Shown one piece after another: positions 13,124 through 27,895 of a stretch of 27,918 nt of DNA (position 1 is its first letter; every line of letters starts with the position of its first letter). The DNA comes from a virus, in the UHGV virus genome UHGV-0137059; one strand, given 5' to 3'. The notes below the pieces were generated by a model, which saw only the letters and a list, made by a program, of their open reading frames with translations, was not told where the DNA came from and did no database searches. The translations under genes were made by a program, and so were the position numbers.

Positions 13124-13747
13124 CTAACGTGTGACCGCATTCAAAATGTTGTCTGCGATTGACTCTTCTTTGTGGCATTGCACCACCAGAGCGTCATACA
13201 GCGGCTTAACAGTGCGTGACCAGGTTGGTTGGGTAAGATTTGGGATTAGCATCGTCACAGCGCGATATGCGGCGCTTGCTGGCATCCTTGAATAGCCGAC
13301 ACCTTTGCATCTTCCGCACTCTTTCTCAACAACTCTCCCCCACTGCTCTGTTTTTGCTATATCAACCGCACGGCCTGTACCGTGGCAATCTCTGCATCTT
13401 GCGCCCGGCGTCGCGGCACTACGGCAATAATCCGCATAAGCGAATGTTGCGAGCACTTGCAGTACCTTTGCCTTAGTATTTCCTTCAAGCTTTGCCACAC
13501 CACGGTATTTCCCCGATACCTTGTGTGCAAATTGCATCAGATAGTTGATAGCCTTTTGTTTGTCGTTCTGGCTGAGTTCATGCTTACCGCAGAATGCAGC
13601 CATTCCGAATCCGGCTTGTGATTGCGCCATCCCCATAGCAGCCATCACATCAGTACCGGAAAGAGAGTCAGAAGCCGTAGCCCGTGGTGAGTCGCTCATC
13701 ATCGGGCTTTTTGGCGAATGAAATTTAGCTACACTTTCGAGTCTCAT
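13124..13747 (-). CDS. Q: Late-gene antiterminator Q (207 aa)
   Basis: MRLESVAKFHSPKSPMMSDSPRATASDSLSGTDVMAAMGMAQ... matches recalled lambda Q over its full length. Confidence 0.95.
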   Translation of the reverse strand: MRLESVAKFHSPKSPMMSDSPRATASDSLSGTDVMAAMGMAQSQAGFGMAAFCGKHELSQNDKQKAINYLMQFAHKVSGKYRGVAKLEGNTKAKVLQVLATFAYADYCRSAATPGARCRDCHGTGRAVDIAKTEQWGRVVEKECGRCKGVGYSRMPASAAYRAVTMLIPNLTQPTWSRTVKPLYDALVVQCHKEESIADNILNAVTR

Positions 13748-17076: not shown

Positions 17077-17367
17077 TCATCTTTTAACTCCATATACTGC
17101 CAATACCCGTTTCATCGCGGCACTCTGGCGACACTCCTTAAAAATCAGGTTCGTGCTCATCTTTCCTTCCCGTTCTTCCTTGGTAGCAAACCGATAATAC
17201 ACCGTTCGCCAGACCTTACCTTCGATAACCAGAAGACCTGCCCGTGCCATTTTAGCCGCGGCCTGATTTATGCTGGTTACTGTTGCGCCTGTTAGCGCGG
17301 CAACGTCCGGCGCACAGAAGCTCTTGTGCGTCTCCAGATAATGAATAATTGCCTCTTTGCCCGTCAT
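17077..17367 (-). CDS. ren: Ren (96 aa)
   Basis: MTGKEAIIHYLETHKSFCAPDVAALTGATVTSINQAAAKMARAG... matches recalled lambda Ren. Confidence 0.9.
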   Translation of the reverse strand: MTGKEAIIHYLETHKSFCAPDVAALTGATVTSINQAAAKMARAGLLVIEGKVWRTVYYRFATKEEREGKMSTNLIFKECRQSAAMKRVLAVYGVKR

Positions 17368-18065
17368 ACAGTTGCTCCTTTCAGTCCGAACTTCGCTTTG
17401 ATTTCTGCGATCTTCGCCAGAGCCTGAGCCCGGTTAAGTGGTCTACCGCCCATGACAGGAAGTTGTTTTACTGGTTCAGGTATAGCCTCACCACGGTTAA
17501 TTCGTGCGGTCATACAGGACAGTTCATCGGCAGCCTTGCGCCGTAATTCCGCGTCAGTCAACGCATTGGCCCGCATGTTCTGATACAGGTTGGTAACCAG
17601 CCAGTAGTGCGCGTTTGATTTCCACGGATAAGACTCTGCATCCGGATACAGCCCGCGCTTCCGGCAATACTCGTAAACCATATCAACCAGCTCGCTGGCG
17701 TTTGGCAGCCCGGCGGTAACGGATGCTTCTTCCCGGCACCAGGCGACAAACTGCCCGGGTGATGGCAGGAATGGTCGATTCTGCCGACGGGCTACGCGCA
17801 TTCCTGCGTTAACCTGTTCCATTGTGGTGATCCCGTTTTCCCGGAAAGCCAGAACCCACTGGCGGCGGATTTCGTTCAGTTCGTTCTGGTCACGGTTAGC
17901 CAGACTCGCCGGGAAAGTTGCCAGTAACTGGCTGAACACACCGTTGATGATCTGCGCTACCTGCTGTACCTGCGGCTTTTCGTCGTACTGTTCCGGCATG
18001 TTGTTGGCGATCCGACGCATCTGCTCACGGTCAAAGTTAACCATCTGTGCGGCGATGTTTTTCAT
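17364..18065 (-). CDS. P: Replication protein P, DnaB helicase loader (233 aa)
   Basis: MKNIAAQMVNFDREQMRRIANNMPEQYDEKPQ... matches recalled lambda P; same length. Confidence 0.95.
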   Translation of the reverse strand: MKNIAAQMVNFDREQMRRIANNMPEQYDEKPQVQQVAQIINGVFSQLLATFPASLANRDQNELNEIRRQWVLAFRENGITTMEQVNAGMRVARRQNRPFLPSPGQFVAWCREEASVTAGLPNASELVDMVYEYCRKRGLYPDAESYPWKSNAHYWLVTNLYQNMRANALTDAELRRKAADELSCMTARINRGEAIPEPVKQLPVMGGRPLNRAQALAKIAEIKAKFGLKGATV

Positions 18066-18961
18066 AGATCCACCCCGTAAATCCAGTCTGTGTTTGTCAG
18101 GTCGAGTTTTGGTTTGCTGGCTGTCACGACTGCCTGTTGCTTGTTACGGTTGATTTCGAGCTGGGTCCACTTGTCGCGGAGTTTGGCCGGACTAAGCACG
18201 TTACCGGACCAGAAGTTGTCCTGGCATGCCCAGCGGAACAGCACGCACATGTCGCGGTGGTTACGTCCGTCACGTTCACGCATCAGGCGGATATCGTTAG
18301 CCCACCCTGCAAAATTCGGTTTTCTGGCTGATGGCGCGATGGTCTTCACCATGTCAAACATCCACTCTGCGGCGGTCAGGTCTTCTGCTGTCCCCCACTT
18401 GCTGCCGCTCTGAATTGCAGCATCCGGTTTCACCACAGAAAGATCGTTTTCTGGCTGGTCAGAGGATTCGCCAGAATTCTCTGACGAATAATCTTTTCTT
18501 TTTTCTTTTGTAATAGTGTCTTTTGTGTCCCTCTGTTTTGAGGGATAGCAATCCCCCAATTTGAGGGATGTTTTATCCCTCGTTTTAGGGGATTTTCCCT
18601 CGTTTTGAGGGATACACCATTCTGAGATGTTTTTATTTGGTCCAAACATGCCGCCTTGCTGCTTGATAATATTCATTCTGACGAGTTCTAACTTGGCTTC
18701 ATTGCACCGTTTGACGGGTAACTTTGTAATCTCGCTAAGTTGAGAATCGGTGATTCTGTCCATTGGTTTATTCCACCCATAGGTTTTACGCAGAATGGCA
18801 AGCAGCACTTTAAACTGTCGCTTGGTCAGATCTGCGCCCGAATAAGCCTCAAGCAGCATATTTGATAGTCTGGCGTAACCATCATCGAGATCTGCCACAT
18901 TACGCTCCTGTCCGGCAAAGTTACCTCTGCCGAAGTTGAGTATTTTTGCTGTATTTGTCAT
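18062..18961 (-). CDS. O: Replication initiator O (299 aa)
   Basis: MTNTAKILNFGRGNFAGQERNVADLDDGYARLSNMLLEAY... matches recalled lambda O; iteron origin embedded. Confidence 0.95.
   Translation of the reverse strand: MTNTAKILNFGRGNFAGQERNVADLDDGYARLSNMLLEAYSGADLTKRQFKVLLAILRKTYGWNKPMDRITDSQLSEITKLPVKRCNEAKLELVRMNIIKQQGGMFGPNKNISEWCIPQNEGKSPKTRDKTSLKLGDCYPSKQRDTKDTITKEKRKDYSSENSGESSDQPENDLSVVKPDAAIQSGSKWGTAEDLTAAEWMFDMVKTIAPSARKPNFAGWANDIRLMRERDGRNHRDMCVLFRWACQDNFWSGNVLSPAKLRDKWTQLEINRNKQQAVVTASKPKLDLTNTDWIYGVDL
18480..18612 (-). other. Lambda-type replication origin inside O: four iterons plus adjacent AT-rich region
   Basis: Four roughly 18-bp inverted-repeat iterons of form TCCCTC(N6)GAGGGA at 18528-18545, 18552-18568, 18576-18592 and 18596-18612; AT-rich tract at 18480-18527. 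Confidence 0.85.
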
Positions 18962-23927: not shown

Positions 23928-24016
23928 AGGAGTGCGGGTATGTCTTAATTTGTCCCGAGTCGAAGTATTAAATCAGCGTTACTTCCTTGGGCCATGTCCA
24001 TTCTGAGAACAATCAT

Positions 24017-24622
24017 ATGAGCAAAGAATTTTACGCAAGACTGGCAGCTATTCAGGAAAATCTGAACGCGCCCAAGAATCAGTACAACTCATTCGGTAAA
24101 TATAAATACAGAAGCTGCGAAGACATTCTTGAAGGCGTTAAGCCGTTACTGAATGGCCTGTTTTTATCAATCAGCGATGAAGTTGTGTTGATTGGTGATC
24201 GGTATTACGTGAAAGCCACGGCAACTATTACCGATGGCGAAAACAGTCATACGGCAACCGCCCTTGCACGAGAGGAAGAAAGCAAGAAAGGAATGGATTC
24301 TGCACAAGTTACTGGAGCTACAAGCTCTTATGCACGCAAGTATTGCCTCAATGGTTTGTTCGGCATAGATGATGCGAAAGATGCAGATACAGACGAGCAT
24401 AAACATCAGCAGAACGCAGCAGCAAAGCAATCAAAGCCATCACCTACACCTGAACAGGTTTTAAAGGCATTCACTGACGCAGCAATGCAGAAAAACACCG
24501 TGGAAGAGCTTAAACAGGCGTTCGCCAAAGCGTGGAAGATGCTCGAAGGCACACCGGAGCAGCACAAAGCGCAGGACGTTTACAACATCAGACGAGACGA
24601 ATTAGAAGGAGCGGCTGCTTAA
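24017..24622 (+). CDS. erf: Erf single-strand annealing recombinase (201 aa from ATG at 24017)
   Basis: MSKEFYARLAAIQENLNAPKNQYNSFGKYKYRSCEDILEGVKPLLNGLFLSISDEVVLIGDRYYVKATATITDGENSH... matches recalled P22 Erf. Confidence 0.9.
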   Translation: MSKEFYARLAAIQENLNAPKNQYNSFGKYKYRSCEDILEGVKPLLNGLFLSISDEVVLIGDRYYVKATATITDGENSHTATALAREEESKKGMDSAQVTGATSSYARKYCLNGLFGIDDAKDADTDEHKHQQNAAAKQSKPSPTPEQVLKAFTDAAMQKNTVEELKQAFAKAWKMLEGTPEQHKAQDVYNIRRDELEGAAA

Positions 24623-25028: not shown

Positions 25029-25325
25029 ATGCCAGCGCCTCTGTATGGTGCGGATGACCCGCGCCGCTGTTCCGGCAATTCCGTATCGGAGGTGCTGGAA
25101 AATATCAAGAATAATCTCGACGCGTTTCTTGCTCTGCCACCAGAAACAAAAGAAGAACGGAAGTACCGACGCGATATACAACTCGCAGAAAAACAGGAAA
25201 AAGACCGAATAAACGAAACATCAATCCGACCATTCCGCAAAGCCACATATACCCACTTCCCTGAATATATCGACCCGCGCCTGCGTAATTACCGCTCACG
25301 CTATGGCGCTATCAGTAATGACTGA
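25029..25325 (+). CDS. abc2: Abc2 anti-RecBCD protein (98 aa)
   Basis: [22 protein letters not shown]...[11 protein letters not shown]...RYGAISND; length and termini match recalled P22 Abc2. Confidence 0.8.
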
Positions 25326-25335
25326 GGAATTTACC

Positions 25336-25503
25336 ATGAGAGGACTTGCATACAATCCCGGCATTCTTCCGGCAGAAATGATTATTCGCCAACGCGTAAA
25401 GCCAATGCCATCGAGAGAGGAATTGCTTAAGAGAAATAGTTTCGGTTCTGTTAATGACAACAAATATCTGAATGCGATGTTGCGTAAAGGAGGCAAGCAG
25501 TGA
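25336..25503 (+). CDS. Small hypothetical protein (55 aa; alternative start 25318), possibly Abc1-like
   Basis: ATG at 25336 preceded by GAGGA ribosome-binding site; follows abc2 as abc1 does in P22; sequence not recognised. Confidence 0.4.
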
Positions 25504-25799
25504 GTGTATGTCTTATTGATAAACGTCGACGTGGGCAACAAATACCATCTGTTGGAATGCCGAATCACACATGGTTTTGCGTACTTGATATCGATGGTAT
25601 GGATGCGTTGGTTGACACTCGTCATTACTGCGATACCGCAACAGCTACTCCGGCGAAAGCAAAGAAAATGGCTGCTCTGATAGAAAACTGGACTCCACCT
25701 GATGGTTGGTGCAATGGGAATGATCGAGATTGGCATGAAAAAATGAAGGGCTATATCTGCGATTTTTTACGTAAATGCAACGGCTTCAGGGTGATGTGA
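25500..25799 (+). CDS. Hypothetical Cys/His-containing protein (99 aa), GTG start
   Basis: GTG at 25500 with strong AAGGAGG ribosome-binding site 7 nt upstream; GTGA overlap with upstream stop. Confidence 0.55.
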
Positions 25800-25800
25800 T

Positions 25801-26418
25801 ATGACCAAAATAAACTATCAGGCACTGCGTGAGGCGGCAGAACGTGCAATTCCGGCAATGGAATGCCTGTTAATGTTGCCAGTTGATGATGATCTGATAA
25901 GCGAACAGGAACTTAAAGATTACGGTGTGGATATTGATGCGCTCAACGCCTTCAAATTTCTGACCGGACCAGAAACCGTGCTGGCGCTGCTGGATGAACG
26001 GGAAAGAAACCAGCAATACATCAAACGCCGCGACCAGGAGAACGAGGATATTGCGCTAACAGTAGGGAAACTGCGTGTTGAGCTTGAAACAGCAAAATCA
26101 AAACTCAACGAGCAGCGTGAGTATTACGAAGGTGTTATCTCGGATGGGAGTAAGCGTATTGCTAAACTGGAAAGCAACGAAGTCCGTGAAGACGGAAACC
26201 AGTTTCTTGTTGTTCGCCATCCTGGGAAGACTCCTGTTATCAAGCACTGCACTGGTGACCTGGAAGAGTTTCTGCGGCAGTTAATCGAACAAGACCCGTT
26301 AGTAACTATCGACATCATTACGCATCGCTATTACGGGGTTGGAGGTCAATGGGTTCAGGATGCAGGTGAGTATCTGCATATGATGTCTGACGCTGGCATT
26401 CGCATCAAAGGAGAGTGA
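25801..26418 (+). CDS. Ead/Ea22-like early protein (205 aa)
   Basis: N-terminal KINYQALREAAE and internal LLDERERNQQYIKRRDQENEDIA resemble recalled Ea22-family proteins; coiled-coil middle. Confidence 0.65.
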   Translation: MTKINYQALREAAERAIPAMECLLMLPVDDDLISEQELKDYGVDIDALNAFKFLTGPETVLALLDERERNQQYIKRRDQENEDIALTVGKLRVELETAKSKLNEQREYYEGVISDGSKRIAKLESNEVREDGNQFLVVRHPGKTPVIKHCTGDLEEFLRQLIEQDPLVTIDIITHRYYGVGGQWVQDAGEYLHMMSDAGIRIKGE

Positions 26419-26419
26419 G

Positions 26420-26611
26420 ATGGACGGACAAATATCAATCGTTCGACCAGGAGCATGTGACGATCGCGAAATACGAATAATTATTCGTCTGGCAATGGGG
26501 AAAGCAATAACTGCTCTCATTACCCCAGAAAATTTCGCATTAGCTTTAACAGGAAAGTCAGACCTGCCAGTAGAGCTAAAGCTGCGAAATGTTGAGATTA
26601 AGGTGAAATAG
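26420..26611 (+). CDS. Small hypothetical protein (63 aa)
   Basis: ATG at 26420 with AAGGAGA ribosome-binding site. Confidence 0.5.
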   Translation: MDGQISIVRPGACDDREIRIIIRLAMGKAITALITPENFALALTGKSDLPVELKLRNVEIKVK

Positions 26612-26613
26612 CT

Positions 26614-27189
26614 ATGACCACTATTACCAAAGAACGTATCGAATTATTCATTAAAAATCCGCTTGATAACGGGCTTACCCGTGGCGAACAAATGGAAGTG
26701 GCACGGATTGCACTGGCATCACTGGGAGCAGAACCTGTAAGCCAAACTTACAACTTGCCAGAATTAATCGAAGGCATGGAGGTTTCCATTGATGTAAGCA
26801 CTTGTGATGCGGATTTAGGTAATCGCTATTTCGGTACCGTCACCGAGGCGTTAGAACTTGATACTGCCAAGAATGGTTACATCCTCCTGGTTCAGGACGC
26901 AGAGCCAAACTTCGATATAAATGGCAACTCTCCGGTAACTCCGGATGGTTGGGTTATAGTGCCGAAGAAACTAACCGCTGAGAACGGCGCTAAGGGTGTG
27001 CTATCCGGTGAATTTTCAGAAACTACGTTTATAAGCTGCCCGGAATGCTTTGGTGATGATGATTGCGAAACTTGTGACGGCAGCGGGAGAATCGAAATCA
27101 AGGTTCCAGTCAGTTGGACAACTATCAAAACTATTTGGGCTAAAGGGTGTGAGTACTTTTCAATAGTAGCACCGCAGCAAGATGGGTGA
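26614..27189 (+). CDS. Hypothetical protein (191 aa) with C-terminal DnaJ-type CxxCxG...CxxCxGxG zinc-finger motif
   Basis: CPECFGDDDCETCDGSGRIE near C-terminus; ribosome-binding site AAGGTGA. Confidence 0.6.
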   Translation: MTTITKERIELFIKNPLDNGLTRGEQMEVARIALASLGAEPVSQTYNLPELIEGMEVSIDVSTCDADLGNRYFGTVTEALELDTAKNGYILLVQDAEPNFDINGNSPVTPDGWVIVPKKLTAENGAKGVLSGEFSETTFISCPECFGDDDCETCDGSGRIEIKVPVSWTTIKTIWAKGCEYFSIVAPQQDG

Positions 27190-27316
27190 TGAAAACAAGT
27201 GTTTATAACTTAAAAGCATTAAAAAATCGCTTATAGATCAAAAGAAATCTACGTCAAATATTACTATATTTCAATGTGTTATAATTACCCCGTACATAAA
27301 ATGGGGGGGACACAAA

Positions 27317-27559
27317 ATGTTCAAACGCTGCATCACCAAGTGTGGAAGCACACCTGACATCCAAGCTTTTATTAATGAAGATGGTAAGCTTGTTGTTGAG
27401 AGGAGTGGTCCTTTTATTAGCAAACAACTTATCATTACCTCTCCAGCGGAGATGGCCGGGGAATGGATAGTTTCTGAACCAGAGGAGTTGCACATCCCGC
27501 TTCCTTATGGCCCTCAGGGACTGATTTATAACCGTTATGTTCAGAAGGAGGCGGGTTGA
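27317..27559 (+). CDS. Small hypothetical protein (80 aa) behind an AT-rich promoter-like region
   Basis: ATG at 27317 preceded by GGGGGGG ribosome-binding site and AT-rich sequence with TATAAT-like hexamers (27200-27300). Confidence 0.5.
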   Translation: MFKRCITKCGSTPDIQAFINEDGKLVVERSGPFISKQLIITSPAEMAGEWIVSEPEELHIPLPYGPQGLIYNRYVQKEAG

Positions 27560-27838
27560 CAATGTCAGGCATAACATCGCCGAGAAATCGAAAGAAAAAC
27601 AGAACAAGGTAAACGTTGACCTTGCAGCATCAGGCATGGAGTACAGAGAGCGCCTTAACATACCTGTTATCACTGAGCAGGTATCATGAGAGCAACCTGA
27701 GCACTCACGCGAGTATTTCATGGAGCGCATCAGATACTATCGCGAGCAGTCGTTAAACATGCCCAAGGGAAGCAACCCATGGTATATCGATATGGATGAA
27801 CAGAACGCCAAGAAGTAAACGCAATTTGAACGAATGCG

Positions 27839-27895
27839 AACCCGCCGAGTGCGGGTTTTCTTTTATCTGAACTCGCTACGGCGAGTTTTGTTTTA
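27839..27895 (+). terminator. Tandem rho-independent terminators
   Basis: CCCGC-CGAGT-GCGGG followed by TTTTCTTTTAT (27841-27866), then ACTCGC-TACG-GCGAGT followed by TTTGTTTTA (27871-27895); next ATG with GGAG ribosome-binding site at 27908. Confidence 0.65.

Follow-up and report, generated by a model that had tools for sequence, protein, structure and literature searches.

The window, by which we mean the whole 27,918-nucleotide stretch of viral DNA that was analyzed (UHGV virus genome UHGV-0137059), harbors an intact gene for an acidic protein (pI 4.2) with six cysteines and not a single histidine (Table 1). Both the ORF list and the sequence itself show the ATG start and the 191 codons of this open reading frame, which an earlier sequence-only reading of the same DNA had picked out correctly. 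A Shine-Dalgarno-like AAGGTG precedes the target, and the stop codon of the preceding 63-codon ORF is located between this element and the target ATG, so that the two genes are translationally coupled. Genes are arranged in the order erf, abc2, DUF7739, ea22, 63-aa ORF, target and 80-aa ORF, and in E. coli genomes whose copy is 100% or 98.8% identical, the excisionase and integrase genes by ybhC lie further along. This gene order, together with the downstream xis, int and ybhC in the matching E. coli prophages, places the target in the non-essential early-left 'ea' (exo-xis) region, in agreement with the early-region placement proposed from the sequence alone. The gene lies in the PL operon, between the recombination genes/ea22 and xis-int, which is where lambdoid 'ea'/exo-xis mosaic proteins are encoded. 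Its host element is a P22/HK620-like lambdoid prophage, and the lambda O and P genes that had been ascribed to this prophage are indeed present in the other arm.

A probably spurious 158-codon ORF on the minus strand (27254-27730) overlaps the 80-aa ORF, and related prophages have a DNA polymerase III theta-like pseudogene next in line. Two consecutive GC-rich hairpins at ~27838-27895 on the plus strand, cccgccgagtgcgggttttctttt and ctcgctacggcgagttttgtttt, are each followed by a T-run and look like tandem intrinsic terminators that might close the ea region. The same prophage encodes another small Cys4 protein, a NinF-like ORF (PF05810; 15293-15526, minus strand) with the arrangement CxxC-x11-CxxC (CANCGQKLHVLEVHVCSDC).

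Table 1. Features of the target gene, its protein product and its prophage setting. Positions are nucleotides of the window unless a different locus is named.
Feature	Position	Strand	Remarks
Target ORF	26614-27189	+	ATG start, 191 codons, intact; from ORF list and sequence
N-terminal helical cassette, aa 1-45	26614-26748	+	phrog_3323, phrog_10451, phrog_660; common to many prophage proteins
Acidic spacer, aa 46-103	26749-26922	+	poorly modelled
Module joint GNSPVTPDGW, aa 104-113	26923-26952	+
Module first half, aa 114-141, VIVPKKLTAENGAKGVLSGEFSETTFIS	26953-27036	+	short helix and beta-strand 1
Cys4 knuckle loop, aa 142-158, CPECFGDDDCETCDGSG	27037-27087	+	hairpin tip; predicted single zinc site
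Module second half, aa 159-183	27088-27162	+	beta-strand 2 (RIEIKVPVS) and amphipathic helix (WTTIKTIWAKGCEYF)
Shine-Dalgarno-like AAGGTG	26600-26605	+	8 nt 5' of target ATG; read from sequence
Upstream 63-codon ORF	26420-26611	+	stop at 26609-26611
Ead/Ea22-like gene, 205 aa	25801-26418	+	directly before 63-codon ORF
DUF7739 gene	25500-25799		flanks target
abc2, anti-RecBCD	25029-25325		flanks target, 1.3 kb upstream
ERF recombinase (erf)	23987-24622		flanks target
80-aa ORF, function unknown	27317-27559	+	phrog_9613, E=2.6e-50; 3' of target
Lambda-type O	18062-18961	-	other arm of prophage
Lambda-type P	17364-18065	-	other arm of prophage
Q antiterminator	13124-13747	-	PF03589, E=1.3e-57; full motifs CRDCHGTG and CGRCKGVG
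Intact ORF treated inconsistently by PGAP	window 26614-27189; L001 6001-6576; L002 6001-6576

The target protein is a mosaic. From residue 1 to about residue 113-114 it is 98% identical to HK620 hkaE, and its N-terminal cassette (residues 1-45) is identical in hkaE and conserved in gp108 of Salmonella phage 118970_sal3. AF2 predicts helices at residues 6-14 and 23-37 of this cassette, with pLDDT values of 60-70. The spacer that follows is rich in acidic residues (12 D/E vs 2 K/R over residues 46-108), and pLDDT falls below 50 for residues 38-105 of the full-length model. GNSPVTPDGW is the last stretch that the target and hkaE have in common; hkaE then enters DUF551, while the target diverges after W113 and does not match the DUF551 model PF04448. 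The same ten residues precede the module in other fusion proteins (Klebsiella S13b_78 and the consensus of 147 representatives). From its sequence context, this stretch looks like a recombination joint for domain shuffling, situated at the point where DUF551 and the Cys module are swapped. In a three-way alignment, gp108 of 118970_sal3 agrees with the target over its first ~49 residues, at the joint and in the C-terminal part, and its middle is unrelated. Among the 120 closest database proteins, residues ~38-191 stand behind at least ten different N-termini, including Ead/Ea22, DUF550 and DUF551. Full-length homologs of the same length as the target number 27. The target is the positional and N-terminal counterpart of HK620 hkaE and P22 eaA.

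Database annotation of this gene is inconsistent. Many NCBI proteins of identical length are named 'molecular chaperone DnaJ', a misnomer that is supported by no NCBIfam or Pfam model; an NCBIfam search with the target returned no match. In the RefSeq/PGAP annotation of strain IAI1, codons 1-46 are a 'partial' pseudogene and codons 55-191 a 'molecular chaperone DnaJ'. For strain 1368KP, which is identical to the window, RefSeq annotates the 46-codon fragment alone though the frame is open. Elsewhere, this C-terminal DNA goes under the label 'ead/Ea22-like' or 'hypothetical'. Literature searches on the motif, on hkaE and on DnaJ-like zinc fingers in prophages found nothing on the module family.

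The C-terminal module is widely distributed. An exhaustive search with residues 105-191 yielded 1,316 clusters at 50% identity, 827 of them at E<=1e-10, from phages of Proteobacteria, and the module DNA is carried by 191 of 5,426 complete E. coli genomes. Such numbers do not agree with the sequence-only reading, in which a phage protein of this kind was considered unusual. The module match is almost always C-terminal, in proteins of 95-442 aa. Searched alone, the last 70 residues matched 23 phage records, with identities of 74-82% in phages of Enterobacter, Klebsiella and Salmonella and of ~45% in those of Serratia, Pseudomonas and Vibrio. Pfam domains located before the module in the 147 representatives include the dATP/dGTP pyrophosphohydrolase PF04447 (9 proteins), DUF551 (8), Ead_Ea22 (5), DUF3850/ASCH and Lar (1), and most representatives have none. 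These fusion partners may reflect promiscuous recombination and not a shared function. A further search, seeded with three distant phage copies, retrieved 73 proteins, many of which are standalone proteins of 74-100 aa that consist of the module alone; they occur in a Cupriavidus prophage, in Vibrio and Pseudomonas phages and in metagenomes. No constant neighbor gene was found in the gene neighborhoods of these standalone copies, and genomic context therefore yields no functional clue. No Pfam or NCBIfam model covers the ~70-75-aa module, which falls within PHROG 60 (phrog_60, E=4e-41), a group of unknown function.

Conservation within the module is concentrated in a well-defined scaffold. Among 95 sequences, P117, L120, T121, A122, E123, N124, G125, A126, K127, G132, E133 and F134 are invariant or near-invariant, as are C151, C154, W168, K172 and I174. 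The resulting pattern, 'P..LTAENGAK..L.GEF ... W..IK.I', is present in the target with all of its scaffold residues. Other than C151 and C154, the invariant residues flank the Cys loop. In the second half of the module, W168 is the invariant position, while K172 and I174 are near-invariant.

Structure prediction, one of the checks that had been suggested for the DnaJ hypothesis, gave a confident fold for the module and no DnaJ among its structural neighbors. The full-length model, built with the 95-sequence alignment, is good over residues 110-185. When the module was modelled alone, the mean pLDDT was 86.8 and the pTM 0.66, with a pLDDT of 86 for the Cys-loop block. After an extended N-terminal segment, the modelled chain forms a short helix and then beta-strands 1 and 2, which are connected by the Cys loop, and it ends in an amphipathic helix of 16 residues (H-E-loop-E-H). 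In this model the four cysteines are gathered at the tip of the hairpin, a predicted arrangement that fits one structural zinc site. Searches of the PDB with Foldseek gave no significant match (best E=0.49 with the full model and E=2.6 with the module), nor did a search of the viral BFVD library with the module, whose best match (E=0.07) was to unnamed small phage proteins. Structures of DnaJ, Anti-TRAP and Ea22 are absent among the Foldseek matches; with regard to the Cys-rich domains 1EXK, 2CTT and 1NLT, the PDB results contained no DnaJ entry.

The cysteine motif itself reads C142-P-E-C145-F-G-D-D-D-C151-E-T-C154-D-G-S-G-R-I-E (nt 27037-27096), with a spacing of C142-x2-C145-x5-C151-x2-C154, and the translation ends ...ISCPECFGDDDCETCDGSGRIEIKVPVSW..., as quoted in the sequence-only reading. 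The CxxCxGxG repeat pattern that had been recognized there survives in part: the DnaJ-type knuckle signature is conserved, while the full CxxCxGxG is found only in the second motif (CETCDGSG), the first being CxxCxGxx (CPECFGDD). In 200,000 shuffles of the protein, the probability that its six cysteines form CxxC-x(2-20)-CxxC by chance was 8.7e-4. All four cysteines are invariant in the 147 representatives, which form a close enterobacterial subgroup (68-100% identity), and each of the four is present in 57-63 of 70 diverse relatives. Given the shuffling result and this conservation, the cysteine arrangement exceeds chance. Conservation of the four cysteines also makes it most likely that they bind one zinc ion, and we treat the loop as a putative zinc site.

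A census of the Cys loop in 67 diverse relatives with recognizable anchors revealed considerable variation. CxxC...CxxC is present in 42 of these relatives, and 16 others have at least four cysteines in a different spacing (e.g., CCC...CxxC), so that at least four cysteines are kept in 58 of 67. The nine relatives without a four-Cys site comprise one with three cysteines, two with one or two, and six with none. A complete CxxCxGxG is absent from 24 of the 67, occurs once in 33 and twice in 10, and the length of the loop ranges from 17 to 45 aa. Within the C-terminal module, conservation is lowest in this loop. Since Cys-free members exist, zinc is dispensable for the fold. Dispensability of zinc is no proof of a functionally passive loop, however, and as the most variable element the loop could set target specificity. 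In gp108 of Salmonella phage 118970_sal3 (L011 2501-3082), C142 is replaced by Phe (ISFPECLADEECESCDGSG) and the other three cysteines and the scaffold are retained, which suggests either a three-Cys site or a relaxed need for zinc.

A Cys4 loop in an early phage protein brings to mind a nucleic-acid-binding zinc ribbon, in which case the target would be a transcription or replication regulator like Q or the TraR/DksA-type C4 proteins. C4 zinc ribbons encoded in phage early regions are often regulators, and TraR/DksA genes are found nearby in related prophages. However, the module has a net acidic composition (13 D/E vs 7 K/R), which argues against nucleic-acid binding. In addition, the module has no likeness to Q, TraR or DksA, its cysteine pairs are separated by 5 residues and not by ~17, and cysteines are missing in some relatives. 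We therefore regard a regulator of this type as very unlikely.

The sequence-only reading had suggested a different idea, namely that the protein is a copy of the client-binding zinc finger of DnaJ, which could compete with or modulate DnaJ/DnaK, for instance in O/P replication of a prophage that carries lambda-type O and P. Apart from the CxxCxGxG signature, several weak profile matches speak for such a mimic. In searches against the PDB, the family profile matched DNAJA3 (2ctt) at E=0.006 and E. coli DnaJ (1exk) at E=0.04, hhalign aligned the family with the DnaJ Cys-rich domain at 55% probability over 29 columns, and 13 of 79 relatives gave weak sub-threshold matches to PF00684. The target, however, matched neither PF00684 nor the J domain PF00226 at E<=1, nor was there a match to DnaJ_C/CTD-I/II (PF01556), and the lack of histidine means that it contains no HPD motif. 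Since the 2ctt alignment reached upstream of the cysteines, we tested whether the module is a fragment of DnaJ. When a profile was built from the flank without the cysteines, no PDB chain matched it at E<=10, and its scores with all filters off were -0.1 bits for E. coli DnaJ, -0.9 for DNAJA3 and -1.2 for Ydj1. Even the full family profile reached just 8.4 bits against DnaJ and 6.7 against Ydj1, where the DnaJ and Ydj1 sequences used were confirmed in part by alignments. The negative flank scores indicate that the module resembles DnaJ in the CxxC pair only. The idea behind this test, in which the module would be CTD-I and zinc centre I of a type I J-protein, was accordingly rejected, the flank match being put down to chance.

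The geometry of the zinc sites is a second point of divergence. In DnaJ (PDB 1EXK), zinc sites are formed by motifs 1 and 4 and by motifs 2 and 3. Adjacent DnaJ motifs, including those to which the module aligns (1 and 2 or 3 and 4), consequently share no zinc, whereas the two motifs of the target, 5 residues apart, would have to. An internal control is provided by the Q antiterminator encoded elsewhere in the window: it bears two full motifs, and its match to PF00684 (E=1.3e-4) surpasses that of the target, so the CxxCxGxG signature is not specific to chaperones, and its occurrence in a phage protein is again nothing unusual. Moreover, the Cys loop is missing in some relatives. The module occurs in many different prophage backbones, adjoins a PriCT-2 protein in Pseudomonas phage pAN and, in a Vibrio phage of 79 kb, is found close to a DNA primase. 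As these nearby annotated genes point to other replication modules, there is no visible link to O/P and DnaJ-dependent replication, and the proposed connection with chaperone-dependent lambda replication is not supported. We conclude that the target is neither a chaperone nor a member of the DnaJ family, and that mimicry of DnaJ is highly improbable.

The acidity of the protein could also be that of a counter-defense decoy, an early protein that mimics DNA or otherwise neutralizes host restriction or defense. Its low pI and acidic spacer would be in keeping with this role, as would its location in an accessory region in which the anti-RecBCD gene abc2 lies 1.3 kb upstream, and the module is found in fusions to Lar_restr_allev and PF04447. 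These fusions are few, however, with one Lar and nine PF04447 proteins in 147, and may be recombination noise. PADLOC matched the Cys motif alone (E=0.015), and no function is attached to the PHROG. A role as decoy thus seems quite unlikely.

A further possibility is suggested by Anti-TRAP of B. subtilis (PF15777), a small protein-binding protein in which two adjacent DnaJ-type motifs form one zinc site and are followed by a helix. By this analogy, the two adjacent motifs of the target would likewise make up one zinc site ahead of an oligomerizing helix, and the oligomer would block an oligomeric host protein. Anti-TRAP gave the best hhalign probability (69%, slightly above the 55% for DnaJ), with both CxxC pairs in register. 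PF15777 is also the only named Pfam match of the full-length protein (E=0.68; 0.078 for the module alone), and the model shows the same order of zinc knuckle, strand and amphipathic helix in a protein that is small and acidic. Nevertheless, the PF15777 scores of 10.4 bits (full length) and 13.4 bits (module) remain far from the cut-off of 32, no Anti-TRAP structure was among the Foldseek matches at E<=10, and the LTAENGAK..GEF segment has no Anti-TRAP equivalent. The Anti-TRAP spacer is also longer than that of the target. We consider an Anti-TRAP-like protein unlikely. There is little probability in a more far-reaching version, in which the C-terminal ~70 aa constitute an undescribed, widespread phage domain that could plug a host hub in the manner of Anti-TRAP, with the DnaK/DnaJ hub as the boldest form of the idea.

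Taken together, it seems reasonably probable that the target is an accessory mosaic protein with a zinc-stapled, protein-binding head, although our confidence in the binding function itself is lower. It is a common representative of the mosaic accessory proteins known from lambda/P22-type prophages. We place its gene among the non-essential, delayed-early accessory genes in the leftward (PL) operon. The product is a mosaic of three parts: the helical cassette (residues 1-45), the acidic and probably flexible spacer (residues 46-103), and, beyond the joint, a portable C-terminal domain. Zinc at the hairpin tip would staple the Cys loop, its role thus being structural, and a patch outside the loop, made up of T121, E123, N124, K127, E133, W168 and K172, is the more likely functional surface. 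By analogy with the C-terminal domains of Ea22, the C-terminal domain of the target could be a 'head' that docks onto a host or phage factor. We favor a protein-binding head since the module is compact and acidic and its invariant polar patch lies away from the zinc loop.

The value of these findings lies mainly in annotation, given that the intact gene is split, skipped or misnamed in thousands of enterobacterial genomes. As a distinct and definable domain, the module merits a family model of its own. Being abundant, compact and confidently modelled, it would also lend itself readily to a screen for binding partners. Nothing here points to a new mechanism or to a link with chaperone-dependent replication. 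Products of the exo-xis/ea region influence the lysis-lysogeny decision and host physiology, and the module adds one more interchangeable head to this region.

The relationship of the target to known systems can be summarized by comparison with further groups of proteins, beginning with those whose name it has been given. Like type I DnaJ proteins (PF00684), the module has CxxCxGxG-type knuckles at the tip of a beta-hairpin, and its weak profile likeness to them extends over the CxxC pair. DnaJ has two zinc sites, whereas the target has two motifs with a 5-residue spacer and one possible site, and it lacks the J domain, the G/F region and CTD-I/II. The Cys-rich domain of DnaJ contains four CxxCxGxG motifs (PMC5818400). 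A parallel in terms of nomenclature is offered by the plastid J-domain-less proteins BSD2/ZnJ2, OR and PSA2, which, like the target, carry the DnaJ name solely on account of their CxxCxGxG motifs. They have four motifs and documented holdase activity (PMC5818400); the target differs from them in having two motifs, set in a different conserved scaffold, although BSD2_CRD was matched weakly by two relatives. With regard to genomic position, the counterparts are the hkaE (HK620)/P22 eaA-type genes, whose products are annotated as DUF551 proteins. They occupy the same slot as the target, with an ead/Ea22-like gene and then a 63-codon ORF on one side and xis/int on the other. There, hkaE carries a C-terminal DUF551, and the target carries the Cys4 module instead.

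In terms of architecture, the comparison leads to Ea22. Lambda Ea22 is described as an N-terminal part followed by a coiled coil and by an acidic C-terminal domain that is interchangeable and probably binds a host protein or ligand (PMC10834534). There is no relation between the module and this lambda Ea22 domain (hhalign 0.05%). The Ea22 protein encoded upstream of the target (25801-26418, plus strand) matches the lambda Ea22 C-terminal domain (8DSX) with its residues 125-205 (E=1.8e-51) and Ead_Ea22 with its N-terminus. Since this is a genuine lambda-type ea22, the prophage holds both an ea22 gene and an hkaE-type gene with a different head. The target differs from lambda Ea22 in that it has no Ead_Ea22 domain, and some relatives of the module (P0077 and others) have an Ead_Ea22 N-terminus and coiled coil that carry the Cys module. 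Lambda Ea22 and its Stx-phage variants (8DSX) resemble the target in their overall design, in which a conserved front is combined with an acidic C-terminal head that is exchanged, and both are encoded in the exo-xis/ea region.
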